Assembly (NCBI GenBank): GCA_000004985.1
Contig: GG738920.1
DNA length: 64,000 nucleotides
Source: Naegleria gruberi
Lineage: Eukaryota
Reading direction: 5' to 3' (one strand)
Shown piece by piece: positions 8,234 through 62,521 of the stretch. Every line of letters starts with the position of its first letter. The stretch's first letter is position 1. A program made the position numbers and the translations under genes. Under the pieces are notes generated by a model that was not told the origin of the DNA, did no database searches, and saw only the letters and a list, made by a program, of their open reading frames with translations.

Positions 8234-9538
8234 ATGGCACAACAAGCAGCGACAGTGAATCATCTTGGATCGGATGTGTCTTCATCAGCACTGACCAATA
8301 TAACAATGATCATGAATAATAGTACTACTGCCAACAATCAGAGTGGTATTGCTTCGGTCGTTGAATTTTTATTCTATACACTTTATGATTATTGTTTTAA
8401 TTCAATTTTTGGAATTATATTTAATATTGTCTTGATACTTTTGATCCAAACAAAAACTAGTGGATACCTTACTGTTGAAAATCATTTACTTTACCGATTG
8501 AGAATGATTTTACCGGAGATGGGACAACAAACATCAAAGGTTATTAAAATTTCGACCATGAACGAAGCTGTTATTAAGACTTTGTACTTTTATAACGATC
8601 TAGATTATTTATTCTTTACATTTATGATTATGATTTTCTCATTGAAGAATGTTTACAATTATTTAGTTGTGATTATATTTTTAATTTTACTTTTTAGAAT
8701 TTATACAAACATGTATCAGAAGAGGAGAAATATTCTGTATTATTTAACATTTGTAGTTTCATTCCTTTTATCCTTTATTTGTATGGATTACTTTAATGCA
8801 TCTTGTGGAAATGAAATTGAACATCGTGCTATTTATTATATTAAGAATCATATCAAACATTACTTTTTTGTTTATGATGATCATTCTACGAGAGGAATGG
8901 CTAATGGTTGGTTATTGAATGTGTGGAACTTTTTATTTGAAAATTCCACCAACTTTAGTTTATTTTTATTCCTCTTTATTAATTTAATTGTTTCATATTT
9001 CCTGAATCTTGTAGTTGAATTTGATTATATAAGCAAGTGCCATATTTACTTTACCTCTTTCAAAGAGTATCATCATTTTGTAATTGGAGGAAAGTCATTC
9101 AAGGACAAGAAGATTTTCAATCTCTATTCTTTGGCCTCTAGATATCTCAGTCATTTCCAATTACTAGTTTTACCATTATTGGTCTTCTTCTTGGATCATA
9201 CGGAACACATTAAGGTTTCATTATTTTGTGCTCTCAATATTTTGATGCATTTCATTTACTTTAGGATTTACCTCAAGTCATACTTTATTTACAGAGCACT
9301 TCATTATAACAAGTACAAGCAACCTCAAAAGATGATTAATTTGGTCAAGTTTACAATTCTTTACTCATTGAAGAATTTGATTGTTCCATTTATCTCAACT
9401 GTGTTACTGGCTCTCTATGTCATTACTGACTATAGTTGTGTTGTCTTTTACACCATTTACATCTATTATGCAACAAGTGGTACTATTGGATTGCTGACCT
9501 ACTTCTTTGTCAAAGCCTTCTCTCATAATTTGTTATAA
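8234..9538 (+). CDS. Multi-pass integral membrane protein (434 aa), family unknown
   Basis: Intact ORF with hydrophilic N-terminus followed by at least 7 hydrophobic helices; no signature motif recognised. Confidence 0.45.
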   Translation: MAQQAATVNHLGSDVSSSALTNITMIMNNSTTANNQSGIASVVEFLFYTLYDYCFNSIFGIIFNIVLILLIQTKTSGYLTVENHLLYRLRMILPEMGQQTSKVIKISTMNEAVIKTLYFYNDLDYLFFTFMIMIFSLKNVYNYLVVIIFLILLFRIYTNMYQKRRNILYYLTFVVSFLLSFICMDYFNASCGNEIEHRAIYYIKNHIKHYFFVYDDHSTRGMANGWLLNVWNFLFENSTNFSLFLFLFINLIVSYFLNLVVEFDYISKCHIYFTSFKEYHHFVIGGKSFKDKKIFNLYSLASRYLSHFQLLVLPLLVFFLDHTEHIKVSLFCALNILMHFIYFRIYLKSYFIYRALHYNKYKQPQKMINLVKFTILYSLKNLIVPFISTVLLALYVITDYSCVVFYTIYIYYATSGTIGLLTYFFVKAFSHNLL

Positions 9539-27362: not shown

Positions 27363-28773
27363 ATGCACCAGAAGTTGAAGATATCTTTACAGAATCAACA
27401 GAATTTATTGCCTCTGATTGTATTGATTGATTCATTTCATGCCATCAACACAAACACTAGCCCCAATGGTTCTCTTTATGAAGTTGGAATTCTCCTATTC
27501 GAAAGCATGAAATATGAGCTGAAATCCAGTGCCACTTTGTCTCTTGTTTTATCTGCCAATTCCTTTCCAAACCAGTTTATCTTCAGCCGATACATGTTAC
27601 AATCTCAAAGTTGTAAACCTAGAGTTGCTGTTTGGAGCAAATGTTTTTCAAGAAATTACATTCGAATTGTTCTCTGCATATCTACATAGTGGTCAAAGAA
27701 TTGGGAGGAAATCCAGTGGCATGTGATAGCGCAAAAGAGCTTTCTCCTTATCTATCCAGAATAATTGTTTCTGTTTTATTAATGTGTAGTGGAAATGGAA
27801 GAGCAATGGAAAATATGTATTACCATTATGGTTCAGACCTTGCTAAAATGGTAGCTGACGAATTGTCAATTTCCCCACTTGAAAGGTCAACTCTATCTCA
27901 CCAAGAATTTGATATTTTGGAACAATGTAGAAAGACAATACAAACCTTTGCGAAGAAATACCCAGACAAACCTGAAGTTGGATTCTTTGATGAAGGTGAA
28001 GCACAGTATTTCCAATTAATCAAAGTGATGGGAATTACAAAACCACCATATCAACCACTTTTCCCAAGATCAAAGGATAAGCATAGTTTGACGGAGTTTC
28101 AAAAGATTGGATGGTGTGTTAAACTTGGAGTGGATAAAGAGCTATGTCAAGCAAGTTATGCTGGTTCCTTTATGATAAACATTTAACAAAACCGAAATTC
28201 CAAACGAAACTACAAGATGATCATTTCAAAAAAACTATTGCAGCCTCTATTTGGGCAAGCTATTGTTTGGGCTGTTTGGAATCTAATGTACCGATTGGAT
28301 CATGTCTTCCAATTGAAAAAGTACTTCCTGAAAGTATGATTCCAGATGATTGCAAATCTGGCCAAGTTTCTCTCAAAGGGGTTGTAAAATTATGCAAGCA
28401 ATTTGATTCTCTATCAGATATTGATGTTCTACCTGTGGAAAGGGTAATTCTTAATTCTGCAAAAGCAAAATTTGCAGATATAATTTTGCCTGTCAAGGTC
28501 AAAAACGAGCAAAGATTTATTGGCATACAAGCATGTTACCTCAAGTCAAATAGATCACAATCCAACCTATTCAAAATGGTTCAAGATATGAAATATGTAT
28601 TAGAATTACCATCTTTCTCATACCTCTTTATATCCACTTACAATGTTCTCAACTTTCCAATTCCCAAAAAAATAGCACCACATGTTAATTATTTATTGAA
28701 ACACCAAACCCAGTTTAAAGCAACACTGCCAAATAATCTGGTTTCCTATTGGTGGAATCAAATAATTCTCTGA
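27363..28773 (+). other. Chain of overlapping ORFs in three frames (27363..27689, 27632..28186, 28144..28773); uncharacterised gene with introns or frameshifts
   Basis: Successive -1 frame shifts between ORFs of 108, 184 and 209 aa; no recognisable domain; could be one multi-exon gene or a decayed gene. Confidence 0.25.
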
Positions 28774-28876: not shown

Positions 28877-31800
28877 CTAATAGAAATAAGAATTATCCAT
28901 TCCTTCTGTCCATGAATCCACTTCTGAACATGTTGATTCTACTTCTGATTCATCTCCAGTCAAGTCATACAAGTCATCATCATCATTATAATTCTCATCA
29001 TATTCTCCTTCACTATTTTCTTCAAGATTTTGAATTTCTTCATCCGAATCCACTCTAATTTCCTTCTCTTTCGTAGCAATCATTACCAGTTCCTTAAAGT
29101 TTATCCACCCAAAACTGAAAATATTGAACTGATTTTTCTCTGTATGAGTAATGTAATACCAGGCAGAGGCAATTGCCAATCGCTCACTCTCCCCATATTT
29201 CCTTACCATCTCTTCGAAAACATTCCTAAAATGTTTCAGGTAGAATGAAATGGTGATTGCAATGGTTTCGTGAATATCATGTTCCTTATGTCCAAAGCAT
29301 TTGATATTGGTATTAATCCAACCTGAAATAATTTGTGATTCGTCCTCAACGCCATACTTTACCATATCCGAGTTGACAAATCTACTGTAATTGTAATAAT
29401 GTGGCTCTATTTCCTTCAAGTACTTGTCAAATCCGTCAACAATGAGTAATGAATTGTGCTTTTTGTTGCATTTTCCTGGTGTTTCATGTTTGAATTGTGT
29501 TTCATCAAATAGTTTTCCAAGCACTTTTTTAGACTTGTACTTTCTTTTCATAGAAGAAATCATAAAGTGTGGATATTCATATAATTTGACCTTTGATGGA
29601 ATGATTGCAAATTTACCACTCTTGGCACTGTCTACAGCTGTTGAGTGAAGCTCACAAAGTGTTAAACATTCCTTCGATGTTAAACCATTTTTTCTAAAAT
29701 CAGAATTAGCCAAATGAGTATTGGCAATCAATCCAAGATTATTTCTCGTAATAAACTCTATGAAAAAGTCTATAATATCATCTTGCTTAATCTTGTATTC
29801 TTCTTCCTCCTCGTCTTTTTTGTTTGTTGGTTTGGCTACAGCTCCAACTGAATAGTCCATTGGTTCAGAATCTGATTCAGGAATCAAGTCTGGATCCCAA
29901 TAGACAAAAAATTGATCACCATCAAGATCTGAGCCTGTTATCATGTTTGTTATTGGCCTTTTTCCTTTCTTAGAAAATACCACAACATCATTTAAATGGT
30001 AAAGTTCTGGACGATCGACTGCTGTTACTATTCTCAAATCACCTTTATGTAGAGAAGGGTTCTTTCCAACAATACATCTTCCCTTAACTACTCCAAATTC
30101 AGCATTAGGTCTATGAAAGATAGGTGATAAATTAACAAAGATTTCATTTTCCTCCAAAACTCCATACTCATCAATGGCTCCCATTAAATACGCTGATTTC
30201 TCAATATATATTTTAGTCTTGTCTCGTAATCCTTTCAATAATTGTTCCTTATATGAACTCAACATATTCATGATAAAATTTTCTGATGTTGCAATTTCTG
30301 GTACATATTTAAGAACATGGCAAATAAATGTCCTTGTATGGTTGGAATGGTAAATCGACAGCCATTCATAGGCCTTTGAGACATCGTCTGTTATACTAAG
30401 AATGGAACGTATCATTTCTCTCTGTTTTGTCATGAATATTTCATCCTTAATTCCAAGTGCTGTCAAAATTGTTATGAATTGTCTATTCAAAAATCCACTT
30501 CTCCTCTTTGAGTAATCCACAATTTCCAATTGTTTCTGTATTGAGGTAAATTTGAATTGACTCTTTCTGAAAACTATTTGTTCTCCTTTTAAAGTTGGAT
30601 CTATTGCTAATACTCCCTTTCCTCCTCCACATCTAAATTGAATAGCTGATAGTAATGATTCTCCTAATTGAAGCTTTTCCTTTACTCGTTGCATCATTTC
30701 TTCACTTATCTTTCCAATACCATCTGTAAAAGTGAATCCATTTCTTTCAATATCTTCAACTGGTTCAATATCTTTAGTAATTTCAATTGATGGAGTTGTA
30801 CTTGTTAAGCATTGTCCAAATCTTGCTGCAACCTTTGCAGGTGTTTTAATGTCAGTGAAATCTCCCATATAATCGAATGTCCTGTGGTGATGGTTTCAAC
30901 TTGTTGTAATCTCTGAGGAAAAACCAACTTGACGAATTTCTTAATTGTGAAGATGAAAATCCAAGAAATTCCAATCGTTTCATGTCAGTAATCATTATAC
31001 CTCTACTCATCAGTTGCTTGATACGATTGCTAATATTTCTGAACTCACTCGCGAACAGATTATTGAAATTATCATCTAAGAAATTAACTCTAAAAAAGTT
31101 TTCTCTACTTCCCCACTTTTTATCGGCGTATCTGATGACTAGATTTGTTTTATCAACCTCAGGAGGTAAAAAGTAAATCTTGGTAGGTGTTACAATGACC
31201 TTTTTGCACAGATTCACCTCTTGTGCAGAGTCTCCCTGCATTAATATAGAACGACTCATTTGTAATTGGTAATCTTTTGAATTTAAATACGTTTCAATAG
31301 TTTCTTCCAAATTGTAAACTCTACTTGGATACTTGATTAAATAGTCAAAGTAAATCTTTTCCAAAAGGGTTCCCATTTTGATTTTGTACTCGTTTGATTC
31401 GTCTCCTTTTAACAATTCGAAAAATTTGTCACTATAATTGCATGGACTGAAAATACCATGACTTTCTAATACCAATAAATAATATTGAATATTGTAAAAG
31501 TCAAGTTTTCTAATCTTTTCCAAAGAGGAGTTTGAAATTTCAAACTTCTTGTGACAGAAATCAATACTTTTGATTGGAACTGCCTCTATTTTCTCTTTCA
31601 ATAACTCAAACAATTTTGGTATCTGCTTTTTGACATCCTGGAACAAACTCAATTTCAGTAAAAACACCTGAGTAAGTCCAATGTCTTCAAAAAGAGTATT
31701 TGTTTCTTTGCAAATCCTTGCACGTGAGGTTGTTTTAAAATTTTCCATATACTGTTGTTCCAACATGAGTGGAATATTCTTTGATTCCAATTCCAAGAAG

Positions 31801-32401
31801 AATTTTCCAACAATCTAATTCCATTCTTAATAGTTGCCAAATTGAATCTTAATTCAAATAACTTTCCATCAAATTTAATATTCAATTTCAACATTCCATC
31901 ATGATTTCTCAAATAATAATTTCGTTTTCTCTCTTTGAAATCCTTTGAAGCACCTTTCTCATACATAAATCGACTATAATTATAAAAAGTAGGCTTTTCC
32001 GATACGAGTGGATCATCTTTCCAATATCCAAAGCTAATGACATCAATATTCAATAGTGGACTTTGCTTTGGAGTGAATACTTTAAAGGCTTGTTTTTTTC
32101 CTCCCCTAGAATTTCCACCTCTTCCTCTTCCCCTAGAATTGCCACCTCTTCCTACTGATTGAGCATTAGAAGATGATGGTGGTGGTGATGATGATTGAGT
32201 ATTAGAAGAAGAGGATGCAGAGGAATTGTTTGATTGTTGAGTTCCCGAATTTGTGTTTACATTATTTGAGGAGGAGGAAACATTTGTGGAAACTCGATTG
32301 GTTTTACCTCCCCGAGGATTGTTTTGTTGGGAGTGATGAGGACGGTTCCGATTATTATTCATTTTTTTCTTTTTGATTTTTATTAAAATTTTGAATTGCA
32401 A
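28877..32401 (-). CDS. Cellular RNA-dependent RNA polymerase (RDR/QDE-1 family), about 1200 aa, with RGG/low-complexity N-terminus
   Basis: Catalytic motif NMITGSDLDGDQFFVYWDPDLIP (DxDGD) in ORF 28877..30868. RDR N-domain block KKVIVTPTKIYFLPPEVDKTNLVIRYADKKWGSRENFFRVNFLDDN in ORF 30852..31796. RGG repeats (GRGGNSRGRGRGGNSRGG) in ORF 31655..32401. Two frame discontinuities (~30860 and ~31700-31796) imply short introns or indels. Confidence 0.85.
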
Positions 32402-32539
32402 ATTGACCTAATTAAGTGATGGGAATTCTGAAAGGTCATGTCGTGTGTTCAATTCCTGTTGACCAGCACCAATTTTTTTAAGTAATTTCAATAATATTTA
32501 CAACAAATTTTAATTTAAACTATTTCAATATGATTTTAA

Positions 32540-34290
32540 TCATTGTTGATTATGTAATTGAATGAATTGATCTTGAAGTCCATTAGCATTGTTAATCTTC
32601 TTCTTTCTACAATTCTGAACCAAAAAGTAAATGACAACCATCAAGAAGGCAGTAATGAAACATCCACCAAAGAATGAAGCAACCACTGAGGCAGCAAAAA
32701 CTCCAACTCCTTCAAAAACAACGATCGTATCAGTTGACTTTCCATTATCAGCAGATGAAGAATTGTAAAACCATGGAATGGCCATCAAACTAATTCCATT
32801 ACATTCACCTGTACAATGACCTAATGTACAATTCATGGTTGCACATGGACAATTGAGAACTTCTTGAGTGATATCAAGACAATCTGGATCAATAACACCA
32901 CATCCACAATCACAACCATCAGATGCATTATAATATTGAGGAGAACATGTCCAATCTGGTGGAACATATTTCTTATTTTCACAATGACCATTGACATTAC
33001 AGAATTGATTGACAAGACAACCATAAGCAAATGAATCATAGGTTTGTTTGGTACAATCTGGATCTGGATAACCACATTCACAGTTACAGACACCATCTCC
33101 ATAATAGGAAGCAAGACATTTCCACTCAGTTGGAACAGGTCCATATTTGCTCATTACTCTTTGACATGATGCAGTTGTGGAATTACAAAAGAAGGCACCA
33201 GAAGATGGACAATTGAATAAAGAAGAACCTTGTTGTAAACAATCTGGATCGAAAACACCACATCCACAATCACAACCATCTATATTTTAAATGAATTACC
33301 ATTTTAGTAAATTTGAAATATTACCAATTATGTAAAAATAGATAAGTAATTAATTATTATATATAAAAAAAACATACCTGAAGTATTATAACTATTTGGA
33401 TTACATTTCCATCCAATTGGTACATCTCTAACAGCTCCAATACTTCTCAATCTCATTTCTTGTTTGAAATTTTCCAATTCCCAATCATTTGGCATTGACA
33501 GAACATCATTATTAGTGTCGGCATTATAATTCTTTCCATCCTTTGGACATTTAACTTTCATCAAATCAATAAATGTAATATTTGTGTTATATTCTGAAAC
33601 AAATGAAGGACTCATATCTCTCCACCATTGAGAACCATTTCCCATAGCAATAACTCTGAAACATTTGCCAGGTGGTACAATGACTTCTAATTCACCTTGA
33701 AATGGTAAACCTTCAACTCCTGTAATGTCTCTACCTCCAGATTTGGAAAATCTAAACATGTATCTATTACTGGCAAATCCAGATGCAACATGTGCTGATT
33801 TTGAAGTACTTAAAAATCCAGAATTTTGTAACAAGTCACCAATTTTAGGAATGTTATCCAAACCAGTTCCTCTAAAAGTTTCAAATTCATACTTGACTAA
33901 TTTCTTTAAAGCAACATTTAAACCAGTTGAAAAATCATGAACCCAACCAGGTCTTGAATTATTTGGTGTAACTTTCAAATGACAGTTCAATAATGGATAA
34001 AGTCTTGGATATTCTGCCTTGTAAGCATAAATATTTCTATAATCTTCATAATTAATACCTGGATTATAAGAAGTGGCAACATTTAATCCCAATTCTGTCA
34101 TGTTTGACTTGGAATTTAATTTATCATTGAGTGGTGAATTGACCACATAATTGCAATATTCTTGTGCAAGAGATGCGGCTAATATTTGACTAGTGCTACC
34201 AAGAATGAGAAGCATTGACATGATGACAACACTGATCGATGCAACGAACATGTACTGTTGTTGATCACGAGGTCCAGGACGGATAAACAT
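32540..34290 (-). CDS. Membrane-anchored mono-ADP-ribosyltransferase (R-S-E class) fused to three Cys-rich repeats and a C-terminal TM helix; 2 exons, intron 33280..33377, about 550 aa
   Basis: Exon 1 (33378..34290): signal/anchor MFVASISVVIMSMLLILGSTSQILAAS, then ART triad FRGTG (Arg), LSTSKS (STS) and FQGELEVIVPPG (E-x-E). Exon 1 ends ..NPNSYNTS at the donor cag|GTATGTTTTT; acceptor aaaatatag|ATGGTTGTG at 33279 continues in phase 1 with DGCDCGCGVFDPDC. Exon 2 holds three W-K/T-C...Y..DG-C-[DN]-C-[GE]-C-G..DPDC repeats, TM VGVFAASVVASFFGGCFITAFLMVVIYFLV and basic tail RKKK. Confidence 0.7.
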
Positions 34291-38148: not shown

Positions 38149-38460
38149 TTTTAAGACTTATTAAACGAGAACTGTTAAATGGGTCGGTAGTGGCTGGGCG
38201 CAGGTGGAAATATCATCTNNNNNNNNNNNNNNNNNNNNNNNNNNNNNNNNNNNNNNNNNNNNNNNNNNTAACTCGAGTGAGTGTGAAAAATACCATTATT
38301 TTCTCTCTGTACCAAGCTGGTATCCATTCATTTAACAGTTCTCAATTAATAAGTCTTAAAACTTGTCTTGAAACCTAATTGAGGAATATTAAATGAATGG
38401 ATACCAGCTTGGTACAGAGAGAAAATAATGGTATTTTTCACACTCACTCGAGTTAACGAG
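38149..38460. repeat. Nested palindromic/foldback repeat array surrounding a 50-N assembly gap (38219..38268)
   Basis: 38269..38335 (taactcgagtgagtgtgaaaaataccattattttctctctgtaccaagctggtatccattcatttaa) is the exact reverse complement of 38392..38458. 38149..38185 (gttttaagacttattaaacgagaactgttaaatg) is a near-exact inverted copy of 38323..38365. Consistent with copies in alternating orientation of a ~95-bp element. Confidence 0.7.
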
Positions 38461-39705: not shown

Positions 39706-39795
39706 TGATGCGAGTGGGATTTGAACCCACGCCCTTGCGGAACACGGAATTTATACTCCTAAACGTGTCGTCTTAGACCACTCGACCATCGCACC
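39706..39795 (-). tRNA. tRNA-Leu (anticodon UAG), class II long variable arm, with about 10-nt intron 3' of anticodon
   Basis: Minus-strand sequence GGTGCGA-TG-GTC-GAGTGGTCTAA-GAC-G-ACACG-TTTAGG[agtataaatt]C-CGTGT-TCCGCAAGGGC-GTGGG-TTCAAAT-CCCAC-TCGCATC-A. Acceptor 7 bp with one G-U pair, GG in D-loop, TTCAAAT T-loop, 11-nt variable arm, discriminator A; anticodon loop T-T-TAG-G with an intron between 37 and 38 as in eukaryotic tRNA-Leu. Confidence 0.75.
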
Positions 39796-39841: not shown

Positions 39842-40923
39842 TTACCTTAATACTTTATTTGGTCTTTTTGCCCAACAAAACATTGATTCCGTACCTGACC
39901 AAGCATTCCAACCTTTATGCGTTATAACATCTCTAGCCTCATCTGCTTTCTTCCAATTCAATGAAAAGAAACGTTGCTCTTCATCCTTAATTCCAATAAA
40001 ATTGCAAACTTTCCTCAAATTAGCCAACAATCTCCATACATACAATCTTCCAGGATAACCAGCACATAATTCTGATAATATCCCCAAAGGAACAAATATA
40101 ATTCCTCTCCAGTCAAATACAAATTTTGAAAAGGTGGCGACGAAACCTTTTCCAATAGAATTGAAAGGTGCATCTTTATGATTGACCATAATTGGTGGAA
40201 TGTAATCTGAGCAATGTCCCATAGATCTGAAGAATGCGTTGAACATCAAGATTGAGCTCAGCCAAAATGATTCATCATTGGAAAATTCCAAAATCCAATT
40301 TGGCAAAACTATTCGAAACAATGTCATTGACTTTGGTATTAGTATTTGTGGAATGATAAAATACCAGAGAGAAAAGAAAAAGCATGTAATGAAGAATTGG
40401 AATCGATAAATTTGATTTTTTGTCTTTGATTGTGCTTTGATATCTGGGGTTGTTTCATTATTCGAAACTATGGATATCGATAATAATTGCACTAAACACA
40501 AAATGTAATGAATCCAATATAATAAACCAGGAAATTGACGAAAACACACACTTCCATAATAATTAAAATACCATGCCCATCTATGAACAGTTCCACAACA
40601 TGTGTTTAGTTGATTTCCAATAAAAAACAATAACTTACAATGTCAAATCTATTGGAAAGGTCAGAATATGAGACCATATATTAAACAGTGTCTGATGATA
40701 AACATATCCAGTCACTGATTGCAACACAAAGTTTTTATGTCCATAATTTCTCAATGGTTGCGAAGTAAATCCATTACCTTAAAATTAGAATAGAACCTTT
40801 CAATTCTTGAATATTGGAAAGTAACTTACTTTGCCATTTAGATAAGAGAATTGGTGCACATGTAGCCAACAACATGAACAGTGAATTTATAACCAACAAC
40901 AGTGGTATCTCATAGAGCTGCAT
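39842..40923 (-). CDS. Multi-pass membrane protein 'X' copy 1 (paralog of 44384..45264), multi-exon
   Basis: Start ATG 40921-40923 (MQLYEIPLLLVINSLFMLLATCAPILLSKWQS then GTAAGT intron). Large exon 39842..40630 with ..VHRWAWYFNYYGSVCFRQFPGLLYWIHYILCLVQLLSISIVSNNE.. and HCSDYIPPIMVNH, CAGYPGRLYVW blocks shared with copy 2. Confidence 0.5.
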
Positions 40924-43017: not shown

Positions 43018-43494
43018 TTTTTTTAAACATTAAAGCTGTAGTGAAAAAGGCGCCAACCATGAGGTTACTAACATTTCTCTTTATTTTACACAATTGACAT
43101 TCGATATTCAATAAATAGAACGAGCAAAAGAAAGTTTGAACTCTGAATCGTAACAATTACACAATGTAAAGTATTAGAGTTAAACTATTTCAAATATTGA
43201 GTAATGATATCCTTAATTATCATTTATTATGCGAATTAATCTACACGTGTTGTAGCATAAACTCAAATAACGAATGGAATAAAACAGACTAAAAGGAAAT
43301 TCACTGCAAAAAATCGACATGTCATTAATACGGTTAAGCTTGATCATTCTTAATATTTCCATAAAAAGGTTCTTTCCTTGTCTATACATAACACCATGAA
43401 ACCTTTAAAACCGCCAACACTTGTAACTGACACGTTTGTGCATCTGTCACTGCTCATTGTATCAAATGAATTACTCAAGCAAAATATTGAAAAA

Positions 43495-44001
43495 ATGTCA
43501 ATAATCAAAACCTTTCCTGCCTTGTTTATGAAATTCTTCATGGCTTACACTTGGTTTGAACCTCTTTTCTGTGAAATATTCCTCGGCTTGTTGTTATTCT
43601 TCTTTCCAACAAATGAATTTGTGATCAATTCCTTTGTTCACACACCACTTTTCAATGCCATGAAAGAATCACTTCCTATTCATGATAGTTTGGCCTTTCT
43701 GATGAGATTTATTTCAATGTTATTGACCACGTTTGGATGTTTGCACTTTTTAATACTGCTAACATGCAACTATCATAGAAAAACAATTGCCCCACAGAAG
43801 AAGTGGTCTCAAAATGTTCTCTTCAATGTACTCATTGCAGTGTTATTGATTGGTGATTGTTTTCATGTGTTGTGTGTTTTAACATTGGAAGGTTCTTTGA
43901 AATCTCAAATTGTTTATCAACTTCCATTAACTATTTACTGTATAATAGTGAGGGCGATGTTTATTATCATGAATCAATTGAAATTATTGAATGATTTTTA
44001 A
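43495..44001 (+). CDS. Small multi-pass membrane protein 'Y' copy 2 (about 168 aa)
   Basis: MSIIKTFPALFMKFFMAYTWFEPLFCEIFLGLLLFFFPTNEFVINSFVHTPLFNAMKESLPIHDSLAFLMRFISMLLT.. is about 85% identical to 45514..46029. The longer ORF from 43378 includes likely 5'-UTR. Confidence 0.5.
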   Translation: MSIIKTFPALFMKFFMAYTWFEPLFCEIFLGLLLFFFPTNEFVINSFVHTPLFNAMKESLPIHDSLAFLMRFISMLLTTFGCLHFLILLTCNYHRKTIAPQKKWSQNVLFNVLIAVLLIGDCFHVLCVLTLEGSLKSQIVYQLPLTIYCIIVRAMFIIMNQLKLLNDF

Positions 44002-44383: not shown

Positions 44384-45264
44384 TTACCAAACATACAATC
44401 TACCAGGATATCCAGCACATAATTCGGATAATATTCCAAGTGGTAAGAATATTAAAACTTTCCATTCGAAAGCTAATTGTAAAAATGCTGAAAATCCTTT
44501 TCCAATTGAGGTAAATGGTAAATCCACATGTTTAACCATAATTGGTGGAATATAATCGGAACAATGAGCTATTGATCGTATGGATGCATTGAGTATCAAG
44601 AAGCAGTTCAGTAAAATTGGATCATTTGAAATTCGAATTGGAAAAATTCGAAACATGATGAACGGAAGAATGAAATACCAAAACGAAAAGGCAAAGTATG
44701 TAATAAGGAACTGTAATAAATAGAAATTAAACTTTTGATAGCGGTAGATTATTAGAGAGGAATCTGTTTGCTCTTTAGTTGGTTTTTCATTATTCGAAAC
44801 TATGGATATCGATAATAATTGCACTAAACACAACATGTAATGAATCCAATATAATAAACCAGGAAATTGAGGAAACCACACACTTCCATAATAATTAAAA
44901 TACCATGCCCATCTATGAACAGTTACACAAAACACGTGTTTAGTTGAATTTCCAATAAAAAAACAATAACTTACAATGTCAAATCTATTGGAAAGGTCAG
45001 AATATGAGACCATATATTAAACAGTGTCTGATGATAGACATATCCAGTCACTGATTGCAACACAAAGTTTTTATGACCATAATTTCTCAATGGTTGCGAA
45101 GTAAATCCATTACCTATGAAAAAATTAACAATTATTCCAGTTTCGCGAAACCCCACAAAAAACTTACTTTGCCACTTGGAAATAAGAACTGGTGCACATG
45201 TCGATGACAACACGAACAATGCATTCCCAACAAACAACCAGGGAACGTTCTCTGTAAGTTGCAT
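44384..45264 (-). CDS. Multi-pass membrane protein 'X' copy 2, 2+ exons
   Basis: Start ATG 45262-45264 (MQLTENVPWLFVGNALFVLSSTCAPVLISKWQSK), intron ~45105-45165, body exon 44384..45013 with VHRWAWYFNYYGSVWFPQFPGLLYWIHYMLCLVQLLSISIVSNNE and HCSDYIPPIMVKH, CAGYPGRLYVW. Confidence 0.5.
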
Positions 45265-45513: not shown

Positions 45514-46029
45514 ATGAAAAAAATGACAGCAAACCATTCCATCCTAGCACTATTTATGAAAGTGTTCATTACCTACATGTGGTTTGAACCAATTTTCTGT
45601 GAAATTGTACTCGGCTTGTTGTTATTCTTCTTTCCAACGAATGAATTTGTGATTAATTCATTTGTTCACACACCACTCTTCAATGCCATGAAAGAATCAC
45701 TTCCTATTCATGATAGTTTGGCCTTTCTGATGAGATTTATTTCAATGTTATTAACTATTTTTGGAGGTTTACATTTACTGTTAATGGTTGCTTGTAATTA
45801 TCATCAAAGAGATGTGGAATCTCAGAATAAGTGGTCTAAGAATGTTCTCTTCAATGCAATGGTGGCCATTCTGTTGGTTGGTGATTGTTTTCATGTGTTG
45901 TGTGTTTTAACATTGGACGGTTCTTTGAAATCTCAAATTGTTTATCAACTTCCATTAACTATTTACTGTATAATAGTGAGGGGCATGTTTATTATCATGA
46001 ATCAATTCAAAATGTTGAATGATTTTTAG
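45514..46029 (+). CDS. Small multi-pass membrane protein 'Y' copy 3 (171 aa), divergently paired with X copy 2
   Basis: MKKMTANHSILALFMKVFITYMWFEPIFCEIVLGLLLFFFPTNEFVINSFVHTPLFNAMKESLPIHDSLAFLMRFISMLLTIFGG...; four hydrophobic segments. Confidence 0.5.
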   Translation: MKKMTANHSILALFMKVFITYMWFEPIFCEIVLGLLLFFFPTNEFVINSFVHTPLFNAMKESLPIHDSLAFLMRFISMLLTIFGGLHLLLMVACNYHQRDVESQNKWSKNVLFNAMVAILLVGDCFHVLCVLTLDGSLKSQIVYQLPLTIYCIIVRGMFIIMNQFKMLNDF

Positions 46030-46288: not shown

Positions 46289-48108
46289 ATGAAGAAGACA
46301 ATAAACGGTGGGAATAAGGTAAGGAGCACCTCACCTCAATCTACAGCCTCCAATAATTCAACATCATCATCGGCATCATCTTATAGCTCGAAGAGAACTG
46401 CTTCTCCACAACAATATTCACCAGTGATGAGGTCTGGTCGATCATCAAGAAATTCCATGGGTTCTCCTAGAACATCTGTTGGAGGCTCACCTCAACATGA
46501 TGAATTATCTCACTCTATTGAAACTATAACACCAATTAAGAGAATGAATGATGATTCAAGTCTTTCCGAATTTGATGATTCTCCTAATACTAAAACTGTA
46601 AGTTAATTGTTGTGCATAATATTATTCACTACTACTAATAGTTATACAATGAACAAAAGGATTTGAGAGAAAGAGTTGATCAATATCTTAAAGAAGCTTT
46701 TGAAAATAGGCTTGCTTCAATGATGAATTTGAGAGTGCAAATGGAGGAATTAGCAAGTGCACACAAACAAGAAGAGGATAATTATGTTCATACTATTAGG
46801 GAAATTCTTAGAAGAAGTACTTTTGAAAATGAAAGGAGAAGAGAAGTAGAGTCGAGTTTGAAAGGAAAATTAAATGAAGTTGAAGGAAAACTGAAAACAG
46901 AGTTTATTGAAAAACAAAAAACCTATGAAGAATTCCAAAATTTCAAAGAGAAGGGTACTTCAATTATTTATCGATTAAGAGATTCTTTGAAAAAGATTAC
47001 AGAAAAGTACAAGGAAGAAAAGCAGAAAAACTCATCATTGAAAAAACAATTGAAAGAATGTGAAGATGCTTGGGAGGATGAAGTGAAAAAGAGAGAAAGA
47101 TTTGAATCCATCATTAATGAAAAACAATCATCAAATGATATTATTTGGCAAGAAAAGTTTGCAAGAATGAAGGAAAAGAATGTTCAATTATTGGATGAAA
47201 TCCAAGAATTAGAGGAAAAGCTTCATTTACAACAAGAAAAAGCAATTTCAGCTTCAAACAATGGTGAATCAGAAGATTGGAAAAAGAAGGAAAAAGTATT
47301 TGAAACTAAAATCAAAGAATTCCAAAGACTTTTGGAGGAAGAAGAGTCACTAATTGAAGACTTGAAACGAAAGCTTTCCATAAAGCAACAAGAAAATTCA
47401 GAATTATCAAAAGAATTAGAAAGAGTCAAATTGGAAAGAGGTATGAGTAAGGAAATTCTTGATACAACATCAGTGGAAATACCAAAAGAATATTTAGATG
47501 TCTATACTGAAATTAAGGGGTTGTTGGATCCAGAAGATAATAAGAATCTTCAAATGGATGCTAATCCTCAAGATAAGATTAAGGCTCAAAATAGATTCAT
47601 CAGATTATTGCTTACAAAATTAAAGTCAGAAGAACATAATAGAGTTAAAACACACAAAGAAAATATTTCAATCGTACTAGAACAAGAAAAGACCATCTCA
47701 TTCCTGGAAAAGAAGATTAGAGAATTGGAAAATATTGTCATTGAACAAAAAGAACAAGCTCAAAAGGAGAGTTTGAGAATTTCTAAACTTGTAAAGGGTG
47801 AACAAATTGATGAGGAAGCAGATGATGGTAAACTAAGAGAACTTGAACAGAAATTAGATATTATCACTCAAGAAATGAATAATTCCATTAGGTCAATTCA
47901 AGAAGCTAGAGAAGAAAAAATGATTTTAGAAGAAGAAATCGAAGAAGAGGATGATGAAGAATTCACAACACATAGTTTAAAAGAAGAAGAAACAGAACCA
48001 CTAGAAACTAATGAAACAGAGGAAATAATTGAAGAGAGATTGAGTATCAGTGATAATAGTCAAGATGAATTAATTGCTGATTGTAAAGAAGATGATGAAG
48101 ATGTTTAA
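46289..48108 (+). CDS. S-rich N-terminus plus long E/K-rich coiled-coil protein, 2 exons (intron about 46601..46662)
   Basis: Exon 1 ends ..PNTKTV|GTAAGTTAATTG. Exon 2 ORF 46663..48108 has extended heptad coiled-coil (LKKQLKECEDAWEDEVKKRERFESIINEKQ...) and acidic tail. Confidence 0.5.
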
Positions 48109-49091: not shown

Positions 49092-51461
49092 ATGTTTGCA
49101 GGAGATCACGGTCGGAATATTCTCCAACTAGTCGAAGATGACGACGATCAGGTCATTAATTTATCAGACTTTGAATTTAACTTGAATTTACAAACACAAA
49201 TACAAGAATTGGAACCCATTCGTGAATTTTCCAAACAAATTTCATACATTTCGCACCAACAACAACAAGAAGCCTTTTCATTCCAAGATCATCAAGATCA
49301 TGATCACCAATTTAACGTTAAATTATGTCAAGATGATTGGTTCATGATTCTCGATTACATTCCATTCCCTGATTTTTGTAAATTTTCACTTGTTTGTTCA
49401 TCATTTGCAGAATTATTAACTTTTAATAGGAGACATTTGGTGATGAGAGGAATTTTGAAGGATTTTCCATCACTATTAAAAGATCATCATTTTACCACTG
49501 TAGAATCATTGGGAATGTTGGCAAGTGAAAGATCTCCGAGTGATGATCTCTCCAATTTTCAAAAATCATTATTCTCTGATATGATTTATTTCCTTATAGA
49601 GAAGAAGAGATATAAACAAAATTTATGGAAATTCATTGAAATGGATAAAATTAGAGAAATGGATGAGAGATTGTTCATTTTACCATTTAGATCATCAATG
49701 ATCATTAACAGTTTTTATGATTTTTTGGATATTCCACAAGAATTGTTGAATTGTAAAAAATTTATTATGAAATTTTTTGAAATTATTCCAAAGGCTTGTT
49801 CAAAATTTTTCATATTTTTAAATGAAAATTTGAAAAATGATGAGGAAATTGTCAAATTGGCTGTTTCTAATAATGGATGGTTGATTAAATTTGTTAAAAA
49901 TCCAAATAAGGAAATTGTTAATTTGGCATTTCAATCTAAATATAGATTTGACATTTCTCCCACTTATAATCAATATAGAAAAGTATTTGAAAAATATAAT
50001 GATAGTTTAATTCACTTATCAGATTCATATTATGAATTATTAGATGAAAAATCAATTGTTTCTGATTATAGAAAATCAAAAAAAACAAATGATAATTCCT
50101 TATTTAGAAAATATATACAATTAGATTCTAAATATGGATTTAAAAATATTCAATTTCTATTATTATTTGCCTATTTTGAACAATCACCTGAATTGAAAGA
50201 TGTTCTTTTATATTACTATTATAATACTAATAATACTACTAAAAATAGAAAACATTACTTATATGTCGATGATTTAATTACTGACATGATGTGTTTTCCA
50301 GACATGTTTGAACCATCACTTTCCAATATAATTCAAGTTCCTACTCAAATATTAAATTGTAAAACTAGAGAAATAACCATCTCACAAATATTAAATAGAA
50401 TATTAAATGATAATTTTACATTTAATACTATATTAAATAATGTTAATATGAAATTTACAAAATCAAGTATTGAATATTTAAGAAAAAGATTAATTCATCA
50501 ATCCAAAGTTACACCACTCTTTACACGTCTCTATTTTACAAAATATTTTGAAATTAGAAATGAAAATGATGAAAATAATGAAATTAGGAATGAAATTAGG
50601 AATGAAAATGATGAAAATGAGAGAATTAAATTATGGAATGAAATTTCCAAATGTAGAAAATTAAATTTAAAAATGCTCAAATATTATCCAAATTATTATT
50701 CACAATTGAGTGATGAATTTAAGAATGAAAAGGAATTTAAAGCAATTGCAATGGAAAATTTAAAGTGCAATTTGAAATATTTTAATGTGGAAAATAATGA
50801 TGATGAATTTGTAATGGCACTTTCTGGTAATTTTAAAAGAAATATTAAAATATTGAAAAGTAAATATGGAAAGGAAAATATTAAGGAAAGAATTAAACGA
50901 ATTTTCCAACAAGAAAATGGAAGAATTCGTAAAGAATGGTTAAATTGGCCACGTGTCTATGATTTATATCAATTCCATCTTTGTTATTTATATACTGATA
51001 TGGAACATGTATTTACCACTGAAGATCAAATTGAAATGATTGATCATGGAACACCTGCAATTGTTAAGAAAATTGCCATAACCAATGATGAAAGAATTTT
51101 AGAAAGAATTCGAATGAAGAATTTATTGGACATTTGGTTTTCAACCAATTCAACTAGTTTCATGGTAGTAACATTTAGATATTGTTTGAGTTATAAATCA
51201 CATCAAGCTGTTTATAGAGCTTTGGATAGAACTTTTATTACATTACAAAAATCTGATCAATTTTTATCAAAGGTTTTACAAGTGGTTCCTAAATTTGTAA
51301 AGGTATTTTTCACAGTTAGAAAATCATATTATTATGATACACGTACTGTTATTGATTTCCCATTTGAATTAATTAGAGAACTTGCATTGGAAAATCAGAG
51401 AATTGTACATTATTTACCTAGAAATATTCAAAAGAGATTGAAAAATCCATTCTCCCTTTAA
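49092..51461 (+). CDS. F-box-like N-terminus plus DUF4116-repeat protein (789 aa); its 3' two-thirds lie inside the left arm of the inverted duplication
   Basis: DDWFMILDYIPFPDFCKFSLVCSSFAELL (F-box-like); NENLKNDEEIVKLAVSNNGWLIKFVKNPNKEIVNLAF (DUF4116-type repeat); NDENNEIRNEIRNENDENER low-complexity insert. Confidence 0.6.
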   Translation: MFAGDHGRNILQLVEDDDDQVINLSDFEFNLNLQTQIQELEPIREFSKQISYISHQQQQEAFSFQDHQDHDHQFNVKLCQDDWFMILDYIPFPDFCKFSLVCSSFAELLTFNRRHLVMRGILKDFPSLLKDHHFTTVESLGMLASERSPSDDLSNFQKSLFSDMIYFLIEKKRYKQNLWKFIEMDKIREMDERLFILPFRSSMIINSFYDFLDIPQELLNCKKFIMKFFEIIPKACSKFFIFLNENLKNDEEIVKLAVSNNGWLIKFVKNPNKEIVNLAFQSKYRFDISPTYNQYRKVFEKYNDSLIHLSDSYYELLDEKSIVSDYRKSKKTNDNSLFRKYIQLDSKYGFKNIQFLLLFAYFEQSPELKDVLLYYYYNTNNTTKNRKHYLYVDDLITDMMCFPDMFEPSLSNIIQVPTQILNCKTREITISQILNRILNDNFTFNTILNNVNMKFTKSSIEYLRKRLIHQSKVTPLFTRLYFTKYFEIRNENDENNEIRNEIRNENDENERIKLWNEISKCRKLNLKMLKYYPNYYSQLSDEFKNEKEFKAIAMENLKCNLKYFNVENNDDEFVMALSGNFKRNIKILKSKYGKENIKERIKRIFQQENGRIRKEWLNWPRVYDLYQFHLCYLYTDMEHVFTTEDQIEMIDHGTPAIVKKIAITNDERILERIRMKNLLDIWFSTNSTSFMVVTFRYCLSYKSHQAVYRALDRTFITLQKSDQFLSKVLQVVPKFVKVFFTVRKSYYYDTRTVIDFPFELIRELALENQRIVHYLPRNIQKRLKNPFSL

Positions 51462-51545
51462 CCAAATATTAAAAAATATATTTATTATTTTCATCATTTA
51501 TTGCCATATTTGAAAATTCAATTTAAAAGGTAAAAAAAAAAACAA

Positions 51546-52577
51546 TCAAGGTATTCCTTGTATTAAATCTTGAAGTATTTCATGACTTGTTGAATCTAAT
51601 TTACAATTGGTTCTATTTTGTCCAGACCACAATTGAGAAAAGTCGAAATTTAATTCTCTCTCCAAATGATTTCTCAGTGGTGTGAAATAATTGGTTGATT
51701 TTGGAAAGGGTGGTGCATATTCTGAAATAGTTCCAATTTCTTTCATTGCTCTATTTACAATGGAACGAGCAGGTCTTCCTGTGAATATATTAGTCACTGC
51801 AGTTGGTAATGAAACATCTGTCAATAACTGTTTATATTTAACAGTTGATTCCTGACATGTTAAAAATACAGTTCCACATTGAACACCACTAGCTCCCAAT
51901 TGAAATGCTGCTGTTACTGTCTGTGCATCAACAATTCCACCAGCAGCCACAACAGGTACCTTCACTTTCTTTACAATTTGTGGTAGGAGTGAAAATAATC
52001 CCATTTGAGTGGAAATATCATTTGATAAAAACATTCCTCTATGTCCACCTGCTTCTATTCCCTGTGCAATTATAATATCCACTCCATTCTCTTCCAAATA
52101 AAGTGCTTCTTCAACTGTTGTAGCACTTGACATGATTCTAATATTCATCCTTTTCAATTCCTTTACAATTTCTTTAGAAGGTAAACCAAAATGAAAGCTA
52201 ACTACAATTGGTTTAAATTCATTCAATACAGGAATAATATTTTCATTGAAAGGTAATCTGGAAATTGAAGAAGAAATTTTAAATTCCACATTAAATTCTT
52301 GATAATATTTTTCAATTATTTGGCGCCATTGATTTTCATTTTTAGTATTATTGGGATTTTCATGACAAAAGAAATTTAAATTGAATGAATGATCGGTGGC
52401 TAATTTAATCTTTTTAATTTCTCTTCTCATTTCTTCAATATCTAACGTGGCACATGGTAATGAACCTAATGCTCCAAATTTGGAAACTTGAATGGCGAGT
52501 GTGGAGTTTTGAGCACCAGCCATTGGAGCTTGAATAATCGGATATTTGACTTTGAGCAATCTCTTGATTGGATTCAT
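51546..52577 (-). CDS. Nitronate monooxygenase (2-nitropropane dioxygenase-like, FMN-dependent), copy 1
   Basis: YPIIQAPMAGAQNSTLAIQVSKFGALGSL N-terminal NMO signature; GIEAGGHRG; VVAAGGIVD glycine-rich FMN-phosphate motif. 343 aa. Confidence 0.8.
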   Translation of the reverse strand: MNPIKRLLKVKYPIIQAPMAGAQNSTLAIQVSKFGALGSLPCATLDIEEMRREIKKIKLATDHSFNLNFFCHENPNNTKNENQWRQIIEKYYQEFNVEFKISSSISRLPFNENIIPVLNEFKPIVVSFHFGLPSKEIVKELKRMNIRIMSSATTVEEALYLEENGVDIIIAQGIEAGGHRGMFLSNDISTQMGLFSLLPQIVKKVKVPVVAAGGIVDAQTVTAAFQLGASGVQCGTVFLTCQESTVKYKQLLTDVSLPTAVTNIFTGRPARSIVNRAMKEIGTISEYAPPFPKSTNYFTPLRNHLERELNFDFSQLWSGQNRTNCKLDSTSHEILQDLIQGIP

Positions 52578-52921
52578 TTTTTTTGATTATGAGAATGTAT
52601 TAATTTCGAATTGTCCACCCGATTTTGTAAACTTTGTAAATCTTTACAATAATATTATGCAATATTGATAAGGATTCTTTTTTTGAAAATTCCGATTTGT
52701 GAACCAATAAAACAAGCCTTGAAAATGCGCCATGTTTTTTTTACATTAAAATCAACTAGTTGGTGGTGAGAATCATCGTCATACAACAAATTGACATTAC
52801 GCAACTCCTTACCACATAATGTTCTTTTCAGAGCCTTGTTGTTGTGTGATCAAAAAAGCCTCGACAGAATAAAAGCCTTTGATGATGGAATTTTTTAATT
52901 TAAATTTAAATTTAAAAAAAA

Positions 52922-53629
52922 ATGTTCACCAAGACTCTCCGTTCCGGACTCATCACCAAGAAGAATATTATCGGTTTTGCTACTCAACAAGTTAGAAGCA
53001 AACATCAATTACCAACATTGGACTATGCTGTCGAACAAGGTATTCATCCAGTTATTACTGCTCGTCAATTAGATTTCCACTACAATAAGCATCACAAGAC
53101 CTATGTTGATAAGCTTAACGCATTGGTTGAAGGTACTTCATTTGAATCTCAACCTTTGGATGCTATAATTCAAAAAGTAGCCTATGATAGTGACCCAAAG
53201 AGTGTTGCCATCTTCAACAATGCTGCTCAACATTTTAATCACTCCTTCTATTGGAAATCATTGGTTCCAGGTGGTGATAAGATTGAAAACTATCCACTCA
53301 TTAAACAAGAAATTGAAAAGCAATTCGGTTCCGTTGATGCTTTCAAACAACAATTCACTGAAAAGGCTACCACTTTGTTCGGTTCTGGTTGGACTTGGTT
53401 AGTTTTGGATGGTACTTCATTGAGAATTTGGAATGGTTCTAATGCTCAAACTCCAATTGCTGAAAATTTAATTCCATTGCTCACTTGTGATGTTTGGGAA
53501 CATGCTTATTATTTGGATCATCAAAATAGAAGACCAGATTATTTGAAGACTTTCTGGGAAGCAGTTAACTGGGGATTCGTCAACAAGTCACTCCAATTTG
53601 CTGTTGAACAATCTAGTATTAAATTGTAA
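52922..53629 (+). CDS. SOD2: Mn/Fe superoxide dismutase with N-terminal presequence (mitochondrial MnSOD-like), copy 1
   Basis: LPTLDYAVEQGIHPVITARQLDFHYNKHHKTYV and DVWEHAYYLDHQNRRPDY (D-x-W-E-H-A-Y-Y signature); 235 aa with basic, Ser/Thr-rich leader MFTKTLRSGLITKK. Confidence 0.9.
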   Translation: MFTKTLRSGLITKKNIIGFATQQVRSKHQLPTLDYAVEQGIHPVITARQLDFHYNKHHKTYVDKLNALVEGTSFESQPLDAIIQKVAYDSDPKSVAIFNNAAQHFNHSFYWKSLVPGGDKIENYPLIKQEIEKQFGSVDAFKQQFTEKATTLFGSGWTWLVLDGTSLRIWNGSNAQTPIAENLIPLLTCDVWEHAYYLDHQNRRPDYLKTFWEAVNWGFVNKSLQFAVEQSSIKL

Positions 53630-53885
53630 TTTAATTACTATTACTACACTATATAGTAAATAATAATATAAAAAGGATTTAATTTATTAAGCCTAACTTG
53701 TTTGAATTTTTACTACATTCTTCCACTGATCAATTGAATGGTTAGTCAATTAATTCCGAAATAATAATCAAAGCTCATAATAATATTCCTAAATCAATTA
53801 TTCAGTAATCAAAAGAATAAATTTATATTTGAAATTTTAAAGCTGTTTACAGGTCGGAGTAAAATTTATTGGTTGCTAAGGATAG

Positions 53886-55178
<1,293 letters not shown>

Positions 55179-59000: not shown

Positions 59001-60182
<1,182 letters not shown>

Positions 60183-60437: not shown

Positions 60438-61145
60438 TTACAATTTAATACTAGATTGTTCAACAGCAAATTGGAGTGACTTGTTGACGAATCCCCAGTT
60501 AACTGCTTCCCAGAAAGTCTTCAAATAATCTGGTCTTCTATTTTGATGATCCAAATAATAAGCATGTTCCCAAACATCACAAGTGAGCAATGGAATTAAA
60601 TTTTCAGCAATTGGAGTTTGAGCATTAGAACCATTCCAAATTCTCAATGAAGTACCATCCAAAACTAACCAAGTCCAACCAGAACCGAACAAAGTGGTAG
60701 CCTTTTCAGTGAATTGTTGTTTGAAAGCATCAACGGAACCGAATTGCTTTTCAATTTCTTGTTTAATGAGTGGATAGTTTTCAATCTTATCACCACCTGG
60801 AACCAATGATTTCCAATAGAAGGAGTGATTAAAATGTTGAGCAGCATTGTTGAAGATGGCAACACTCTTTGGGTCACTATCATAGGCTACTTTTTGAATA
60901 ATAGCATCCAAAGGTTGAGATTCAAATGAAGTACCTTCAACCAATGCGTTAAGCTTATCAACATAGGTCTTGTGATGCTTATTGTAGTGGAAATCTAATT
61001 GACGAGCAGTAATAACTGGATGAATACCTTGTTCGACAGCATAGTCCAATGTTGGTAATTGATGTTTGCTTCTAACTTGTTGAGTAGCAAAACCGATAAT
61101 ATTCTTCTTGGTGATGAGTCCGGAACGGAGAGTCTTGGTGAACAT
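60438..61145 (-). CDS. SOD2: Mn/Fe superoxide dismutase, copy 2 (protein identical to copy 1)
   Basis: Identical 235-aa translation to 52922..53629. Confidence 0.9.
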   Translation of the reverse strand: MFTKTLRSGLITKKNIIGFATQQVRSKHQLPTLDYAVEQGIHPVITARQLDFHYNKHHKTYVDKLNALVEGTSFESQPLDAIIQKVAYDSDPKSVAIFNNAAQHFNHSFYWKSLVPGGDKIENYPLIKQEIEKQFGSVDAFKQQFTEKATTLFGSGWTWLVLDGTSLRIWNGSNAQTPIAENLIPLLTCDVWEHAYYLDHQNRRPDYLKTFWEAVNWGFVNKSLQFAVEQSSIKL

Positions 61146-61489: not shown

Positions 61490-62521
61490 ATGAATCCAAT
61501 CAAGAGATTGCTCAAAGTCAAATATCCGATTATTCAAGCTCCAATGGCTGGTGCTCAAAACTCCACACTCGCCATTCAAGTTTCCAAATTTGGAGCATTA
61601 GGTTCATTACCATGTGCCACGTTAGATATTGAAGAAATGAGAAGAGAAATTAAAAAGATTAAATTAGCCACCGATCATTCATTCAATTTAAATTTCTTTT
61701 GTCATGAAAATCCCAATAATACTAAAAATGAAAATCAATGGCGCCAAATAATTGAAAAATATTATCAAGAATTTAATGTGGAATTTAAAATTTCTTCTTC
61801 AATTTCCAGATTACCTTTCAATGAAAATATTATTCCTGTATTGAATGAATTTAAACCAATTGTAGTTAGCTTTCATTTTGGTTTACCTTCTAAAGAAATT
61901 GTAAAGGAATTGAAAAGGATGAATATTAGAATCATGTCAAGTGCTACAACAGTTGAAGAAGCACTTTATTTGGAAGAAAATGGAGTGGATATTATAATTG
62001 CACAGGGAATAGAAGCAGGTGGACATAGAGGAATGTTTTTATCAAATGATATTTCCACTCAAATGGGATTATTTTCACTCCTACCACAAATTGTAAAGAA
62101 AGTGAAGGTACCTGTTGTGGCTGCTGGTGGAATTGTTGATGCACAGACAGTAACAGCAGCATTTCAATTGGGAGCTAGTGGTGTTCAATGTGGAACTGTT
62201 TTTTTAACATGTCAGGAATCAACTGTGAAATATAAAAAGTTATTGACAGATGTTTCATTACCAACTGCAGTGACTAATATATTCACAGGAAGACCTGCTC
62301 GTTCCATTGTAAATAGAGCAATGAAAGAAATTGGAACTATTTCAGAATATGCACCACCCTTTCCAAAATCAACCAATTATTTCACACCACTGAGAAATCA
62401 TTTGGAGAGAGAATTAAATTTCGACTTTTCTCAATTGTGGTCTGGACAAAATAGAACCAATTGTAAATTAGATTCAACAAGTCATGAAATTCTTCAAGAT
62501 TTAATACAAGGAATACCTTGA
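61490..62521 (+). CDS. Nitronate monooxygenase, copy 2 (one substitution Q->K relative to copy 1)
   Basis: 343-aa translation identical to 51546..52577 except KYKQLLTD -> KYKKLLTD. Confidence 0.8.
   Translation: MNPIKRLLKVKYPIIQAPMAGAQNSTLAIQVSKFGALGSLPCATLDIEEMRREIKKIKLATDHSFNLNFFCHENPNNTKNENQWRQIIEKYYQEFNVEFKISSSISRLPFNENIIPVLNEFKPIVVSFHFGLPSKEIVKELKRMNIRIMSSATTVEEALYLEENGVDIIIAQGIEAGGHRGMFLSNDISTQMGLFSLLPQIVKKVKVPVVAAGGIVDAQTVTAAFQLGASGVQCGTVFLTCQESTVKYKKLLTDVSLPTAVTNIFTGRPARSIVNRAMKEIGTISEYAPPFPKSTNYFTPLRNHLERELNFDFSQLWSGQNRTNCKLDSTSHEILQDLIQGIP

Follow-up and report, generated by a model that had tools for sequence, protein, structure and literature searches.

Sequence comparison makes it likely that a minus-strand locus of Naegleria gruberi at 32362..28877 of the 64,000-nucleotide stretch analysed here (contig GG738920.1, assembly GCA_000004985.1; hereafter the window) is RDR1c, a cellular RNA-dependent RNA polymerase (RdRP) of the RNA interference (RNAi) type resembling plant RDR1, that its reading frame is broken by two frameshift indels and by no introns, and that the ADP-ribosyltransferase (ART) gene lying upstream is an incidental neighbour. 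The locus consists of three consecutive overlapping open reading frames (ORFs) of 248, 314 and 663 amino acids (aa), listed from 32401 to 28877. The last of these, 30868..28877, matches the Pfam RdRP profile PF05183 over profile positions 110-581 (E=8.9e-139), and the middle one, 31796..30852, matches profile positions 1-93 (E=1.6e-14). A protein homology search with the 663-aa ORF returned the N. lovaniensis RdRP (P0001) as the top match, at 45-47% identity, followed by plant RDR1 at ~36%. An initial annotation of this DNA had called the gene an RNAi-type RdRP, which is confirmed by the Pfam matches, by the homologs and by the full-length domain recovered after repair of the frame.

All motifs that had been named in the initial annotation could be located on the minus strand, distributed over three coding segments. 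Segment A (31797..32362) is read in frame A from the ATG at 32362; it comprises a low-complexity N-terminus and an RGG box, extends into the N-terminal domain and ends in ...IKNGIRLLENSS. Translation places the RGG/RG box, GRGGNSRGRGRGGNSRGG, at 32099..32152, and residues 81-238 of the window protein form a BLASTP high-scoring segment pair (HSP) with the N. lovaniensis exon-1 ORF (E=7e-5). Segment B (30867..31796), in frame B, covers the N-terminal domain and the Pfam RdRP profile up to position ~110, is 37% identical to the N. lovaniensis protein over 171 aa (tblastn) and ends in ...PSPQDIRLY; motif searches found VTPTK at 31193..31179 and FRVNFLDDN at 31094..31068 within it. Segment C (28877..30868), in frame C, which is also the frame of A, is the 663-aa ORF, with the catalytic core and, at the C-terminus, an acidic tail. 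Its catalytic DLDGD (DxDGD) loop lies at 29915..29929, in columns that are invariant in a 21-sequence alignment. Regarding the start of the gene, which had been given as ~32362-32401, the ATG at 32362 holds, whereas 32401 is not a eukaryotic start but a mere TTG picked by a bacterial ORF rule.

The gene is already known, as segment C is the published NaegRDR1c. The supplement of Bollmann et al. (2016, Front Plant Sci 7:284, PMC4791657) contains a sequence named 'Naegleria gruberi NaegRDR1c', beginning MGDFTDIKTPAKVAARFGQCL, whose printed residues agree with the window ORF 30868..28877 at 399/399 positions from the first codon onwards (MGDFTDIK), a match that identifies the window as N. gruberi DNA. 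The table of the same paper gives a count of 10 for N. gruberi, and its sequence files hold ten NaegRDR names (RDR1a, 1b, 1c, 2a, 2b and 3-7; PMC4791657). The public model consists of the C-terminal 663 aa only, starts exactly at the downstream frame break (break 1) and is without the first ~110 RdRP domain profile positions, whereas the window adds ~500 upstream codons in two other ORFs, including the RGG box. Overall, a known gene in an ordinary arrangement offers little biological news, and the new points are modest: the public model is cut at a frameshift, the locus has an N-terminal RGG box and ~500 more residues, and the two indels compensate each other.

This compensation, which had gone unnoticed in the initial annotation, follows from coordinate arithmetic, since the first and third ORFs share a frame from which the second is offset, so that a -1 and a +1 shift cancel. 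The two breaks reported there are both real, and we could refine their positions to 30867/30868 (break 1) and to within 31814..31721, most likely 31814..31797 (break 2). Left unrepaired, translation from the ATG at 32362 ends after 235 codons, ahead of the polymerase domain, and with two frameshifts the locus as assembled has no uninterrupted or cleanly spliced coding sequence. Repair of only 3 nt, one T and one AT, yields a 3489-nt ORF of 1162 aa with no internal stop, and the repaired protein gives a single Pfam RdRP match over residues 391-955, covering profile positions 1-581 of 582 (535.6 bits, E=2.2e-160). As assembled, the break sites read TTATATGGGAG and TCTTCTTGGAA, whereas error-free intact versions would read TTATATATGGGAG and TCTTCTTTGGAA (or equivalents); TTATATATGGG and TCTTCTTTGG are the break-site sequences of an intact ORF.

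At break 1 (30866..30869, minus strand), a +1 frameshift leads out of frame B into frame C. The codons TAT (Y, frame B, 30869-30867) and ATG (M, frame C, 30868-30866) have two bases in common, frame B reading ...PSPQDIRLY and frame C MGDFTDIK, and the conserved residues DIRLY|MGDF abut. The same stretch is uninterrupted in N. lovaniensis, as DIREYMGDF (TKDIREYMGDFSEIK), and in plants, as IRxWMGDF. Break 1 cannot be an intron, because the conserved Y and M leave no nucleotides between them and there is no GT nearby; the intron donor scan found none within reach, and the candidate introns with a consensus donor would delete 64+23 conserved codons, so that none was acceptable. The simplest event at this site appears to be the loss of one AT from TATATAT (TTATATATGGGA), repaired as ttatat(AT)ggga.

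At break 2 (31797..31814, minus strand, with an outer bracket of 31814..31721) the shift is -1 and moves the reading out of frame A into frame B. The latter is open from 31814 on, just past a TAG at 31817-31815, and its head (LELESKNIPLML...ARICKETNTLFEDIGLTQVFLLKL) can be aligned with the exon-1 ORF of N. lovaniensis (shuffle p=0.0005), whereas the continuation of frame A past the break compares with N. lovaniensis no better than shuffled sequence (p=0.24). The repaired junction is spanned by a single BLASTP HSP to N. lovaniensis, in which one continuous ORF runs across both homologous break positions. Break 2 is almost certainly also a frameshift, judging from these comparisons; it looks like the loss of one T, and the simplest repair restores that base, tcttc(T)ttgg, giving ENSS|LELESK. 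The intron scans at both sites were filtered by donor consensus and homology bracket, as an unfiltered GT/GC..AG listing gave hundreds of meaningless candidates.

The ortholog in N. lovaniensis, C9374_007742 (P0001), lies on contig PYSW02000030, 166 bp from a divergently transcribed 589-aa gene that is followed by VMA21. Orthologs of the latter two genes are found at 46.3-48.6 kb of the window with order and orientation preserved (68-73% aa identity); the ortholog of the 589-aa gene, at 46289..48108 on the plus strand, serves as synteny anchor (tblastx, 68-73% aa identity to positions 9442..8270 of the N. lovaniensis locus, L001) and lies 13.9 kb from the RdRP ATG. Because these flanking genes are conserved, RDR1c and the N. 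lovaniensis RdRP are positional orthologs. The two are alike in N-terminal domain, DLDGD motif and neighbouring genes, with a core identity of 45-47%, but the N. lovaniensis gene is intact, is without the RGG repeat, has no ART neighbour and carries several 37-52-nt introns where N. gruberi RDR1c has none. It is also separated from the 589-aa gene by 166 bp rather than by 13.9 kb. The ~13.9 kb between the N. gruberi RdRP and the 589-aa gene hold the ART gene, a DUF4116 gene, duplicated pairs of orphan genes, a tRNA and a scaffold gap; as this DNA is extra relative to N. lovaniensis, the juxtaposition of ART and RDR1c is a lineage-specific rearrangement. The annotation of the N. lovaniensis RdRP itself merits a remark. 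Its 326-nt 'intron' (L001 10658-10983) holds an open 97-codon frame at 10700-10990 that is homologous to the second ORF of the window locus (LDFNIRYHLKSLESHGIFHCCNYNQEFFALL against LDFYNIQYYLLVLESHGIFSPCNYSDKFFELL), and an exon is probably absent from the public 1044-aa model.

The ART stop at 32540 and the RdRP ATG enclose a spacer of 177 bp (32363..32539, minus strand, 23% GC) rather than the ~140 bp estimated initially. Across the window, 23 gaps separate ORFs on the same strand, and their median is likewise 177 bp (193 bp when every gap is counted), so the spacing is no tighter than background. Nor is the adjacency conserved in relatives: the N. lovaniensis ART ortholog is on contig PYSW02000026, between oxysterol-binding-protein and CorA genes, apart from the RdRP contig, and no RdRP was found within 10 kb of the Willaertia magna ART ortholog. 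Neither ARAGORN nor Rfam (at E<=1) found a tRNA or Rfam match in the spacer; a reading of it by eye as the 3' half of a tRNA was dropped on this result. No sequence feature appears to require read-through or co-regulation of the two genes, and the functional tandem arrangement proposed in the initial annotation finds no support in the median spacing, the different contigs in N. lovaniensis or the Willaertia ART without RdRP. On the model we favour, the ART would be an independent conserved gene placed beside RDR1c by lineage-specific rearrangement, with a spacing that would simply reflect a compact genome. A general caution is that, in such a compact protist genome, a same-strand spacer of <200 bp is no evidence of functional linkage.

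A co-transcribed or co-regulated genome-defence pair of ART and RdRP is nevertheless what one might propose from two genes 177 bp apart on the same strand. In other organisms, enzymes of both classes have roles in antiviral or defence pathways. We consider such a pair very improbable, given the ordinary spacing and the missing adjacency in N. lovaniensis and Willaertia, and also given that the RdRP ORF is disrupted in the assembly and that the ART is predicted to lie outside the cell or in a lumen while the RdRP would be cytoplasmic or nuclear, with no obvious shared substrate. The narrower proposal of a read-through or co-regulated unit specific to N. gruberi, formed by the ART 177 bp upstream of RDR1c, is more improbable still, as it requires that the frameshifts be assembly errors and that the RGG-box RdRP be functional. 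The breaks themselves invite other explanations as well. If one or both were small spliceosomal introns, the mRNA would encode a full-length RdRP; such short introns do occur, down to 37-52 nt in N. gruberi and N. lovaniensis, and a lone GT-AG pair inside the break 2 bracket, 31811..31717 (95 nt), would restore the frame there. However, the absence of nucleotides between the conserved Y and M and of a nearby GT at break 1 confines this explanation to break 2, where the donor would be GTTGGA in place of the GTANGT seen in 9/9 reference introns (four from the window, five from the N. lovaniensis RdRP), the AT content of 66% is at exon level and below the 73-81% of the window introns, and the excised stretch stays open in frame B. 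N. lovaniensis is moreover intronless at both positions, and we judge introns to be an improbable cause. The question of intron or frameshift, which the initial annotation had left undecided, is therefore answered in favour of frameshifts by the abutting residues, the donors and the ortholog ORF, and small introns go unsupported. The middle ORF as one large intron, suggested by the coincidence of frames A and C, was ruled out, as that ORF carries conserved RdRP sequence. Programmed ribosomal frameshifting, first -1 and then +1, could in principle yield full-length RdRP from the sequence as written, and the exact compensation of the two shifts would fit it; but two random non-zero shifts cancel with a chance of ~1 in 2, break 2 offers no X XXY YYZ slippery heptamer, break 1 has no stop or rare-codon pause site where conservation requires one, and the N. 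lovaniensis ortholog needs no recoding. We attach a negligible probability to recoding.

What caused the frameshifts is a closer question. Of 264 alignment columns in which 18 plant RDRs do not vary, 164 are conserved in the window protein, 165 in the N. lovaniensis protein and 168 in a metagenomic relative, P0116, and the lineage-unique departures at plant-invariant columns number 13, 12 and 23, respectively. This argues that the RDR1c coding sequence has undergone no long-term decay. With no relaxed constraint, the gene, if dead, must have died very recently; otherwise the disruption is a sequence artefact. We infer that a very recent null allele or young pseudogene is slightly likelier than sequencing or assembly error, at somewhat better than an even chance, and the ten-member RDR family makes redundancy of RDR1c plausible. 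An intact gene in the organism, encoding a 1162-aa RGG-box RdRP, with both frameshifts being base-calling or consensus errors of the draft and the 663-aa model an annotation artefact, is a serious contender to which we assign somewhat less than an even chance. It accords with three segments free of internal stops, with the retention of all invariant residues including DLDGD and with the sufficiency of a 3-nt repair for a full-length domain. It fits less well with the sites themselves, since neither is a long homopolymer and both are short tandem repeats, typical slippage sites. Furthermore, the window holds another ~43 kb of long ORFs without interruption, making two errors in one 3.5-kb gene a local excess, and the duplicated coding ORFs of a 99.1%-identical 4.2-kb inverted repeat keep identical lengths. 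Several points count against our view of RDR1c as a genuinely frameshifted gene with an incidental neighbour. The scaffold is a draft in which positions 15553 and 15562, 9 nt apart, are each called as N and 50 Ns mark a gap at 38219-38268; the two sites are ~930 nt apart, which would be roughly one Sanger read; and sequence alone cannot separate a real mutation from a sequencing error. Homology around break 2 is weak (23% identity), the 95-nt GT-AG at 31811..31717 does formally restore the frame, and an adjacency missing in two relatives could still have a lineage-specific function. No independent copy of the frameshift sites came from metagenome scans with the 663-aa protein or with a gapped DNA pattern across break 1, and an exact-sequence look-up of three window proteins in an assembly collection returned no record and so no independent copy either.

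By analogy with its family, an intact RDR1c would copy aberrant or targeted transcripts into double-stranded RNA for the production of small interfering RNA. It shares with the plant RDR1 / RDR-alpha cellular RdRPs (PF05183) a full-length RdRP domain and the DxDGD motif, at 33-37% identity, but differs from this clade in that the window ORF is disrupted and from plant RDRs in that Pfam detected no N-terminal RRM or plant accessory domains, the N-terminus of RDR1c being lineage-specific. For users of NaegRDR1c, be it in RDR phylogenies or in work on Naegleria RNAi, the locus encodes, or until very recently encoded, an RGG-box enzyme of ~1162 aa. Should the frameshifts be real, RDR1c would illustrate how an expanded RDR family, here of ten genes, turns over by birth and death; should they be errors, the reference assembly needs correcting at two sites. 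The metagenomic relative P0116 (931 aa, 41% identity) is encoded on eukaryote-like contigs of an environmental metagenome (L002-L005; ENA/Logan, sample series YUYA23). A 276-aa ORF ends 15 bp before the called P0116 start on these contigs, and there is no ART neighbour.

The upstream gene had been described as ecto-ART-like, and its orthologs, family profile matches, triad and hydrophobic segments agree with that identification. It is encoded on the minus strand in two exons. Exon 1 (33378..34290) contains an N-terminal hydrophobic segment and the R-S-E ART domain, with the motifs FRGTG (33876..33862), STSKS (33810..33796) and GELEVIV (33696..33676). A 98-nt phase 1 intron (33280..33377, GTATGT...ATATAG) separates it from exon 2 (32540..33279), which reaches the stop at 32540 and specifies three Cys-rich repeats (W.C.P..YN.SDGCDCGCG..DPDC) along with a transmembrane segment and a tail that is short and basic. 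Once the intron is removed, the exons join into YNTS|DGCDCGCG, a repeat motif found again in exon 2 and in intronless orthologs, and the spliced product has 550 aa. Full-length orthologs are P0121 of N. lovaniensis (53% identity), which UniRef lists as NAD(P)(+)--arginine ADP-ribosyltransferase, and P0123 of Willaertia magna (45%). The intron pattern is opposite to that of the RdRP, N. gruberi ART having its 98-nt intron and the N. lovaniensis and Willaertia genes being intronless.

On its own, the window ART protein stays below the Pfam gathering threshold for PF01129 (16.6-18.1 bits vs 22.3), but 5/6 family members match PF01129 (best E=4.2e-7) and 3/6 match ADPrib_exo_Tox. A family profile recovers R-S-E ARTs of solved structure, namely Tre1 (1.5e-8), Vis (1.8e-8), ExoT (2.4e-5) and ExoS (1.4e-4). 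The triad is present as R140 (in FRGTG), S161-T162-S163 and E200-L-E202, of which R140, S161, T162, S163 and E202 are invariant across the six family members. A Kyte-Doolittle scan places hydrophobic segments at aa 11-41 and 487-529, flanking the ART domain and the Cys-rich repeats. The topology is thus predicted to be that of an ecto-enzyme, and 'ecto-ART-like' seems a fair label. An AlphaFold2 model of the ART domain, built from the 6-sequence alignment, had a mean predicted local distance difference test score (pLDDT) of 34.9; it was unusable for a fold search. While the window ART shares the R / S-T-S / E-x-E triad with R-S-E mono-ADP-ribosyltransferases such as vertebrate ARTC ecto-ARTs and bacterial Tre1, Vis and ExoS/ExoT, its anchor is a predicted transmembrane segment, not glycosylphosphatidylinositol (GPI), and it adds to the known R-S-E ARTs the three Cys-rich DGCDCGCG..DPDC repeats. 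The Cys-rich repeat domain of the C-terminus appears to be unnamed in Pfam. Further matches in the ART search (P0124-P0128) showed ~43% identity over only ~30% of the query, which suggests that the Cys-rich repeats are likely the matching part; trypsin-like protease domains are present in P0127 and in P0128, the latter being from a deltaproteobacterial metagenome bin.

The window as a whole has ~32% GC, and ~67% of it lies in long ATG-initiated ORFs. Convergent to the 3' end of the RdRP, the plus strand at 27363-28773 carries three ORFs in different frames, overlapping by 67 and 49 nt. No convincing intron and no Pfam match were found for them, and a search with 27632..28773 found no homolog among 5.8 billion proteins; this search had been made as a gauge of the assembly frameshift rate and was uninformative in that respect. 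The region may be non-coding, or it may represent an orphan gene that has frameshifts.

Between 38300 and 46700 lie two paralogous pairs of orphan multi-pass membrane-like genes. The first pair, 39842..40630 and 44384..45013 on the minus strand, is 73% identical overall, and the second, 43378..44001 and 45514..46029 on the plus strand, is 86% identical at the DNA level. A 160-nt block in the first pair (40784-40623 vs 45120-44959) is 98% identical with stops in all frames, and may be a conserved intron, a regulatory element or a product of gene conversion. The same lineage-specific 14-kb segment contains a 90-nt tRNA gene at 39706-39795 on the minus strand (Rfam RF00005, 49.8 bits), which probably contains an intron, as ARAGORN gave no anticodon. 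Finally, the 4.2-kb inverted repeat (50054-54245 / 59823-64000) is 99.1% identical with 22 gap positions and reaches the end of the window. Present in both of its arms are a nitronate monooxygenase ORF (51546..52577 / 61490..62521), an Fe/Mn superoxide dismutase ORF (52922..53629 / 60438..61145), a portion of a DUF4116/F-box gene and sequence that overlaps the GAPDH gene (59007..60182).

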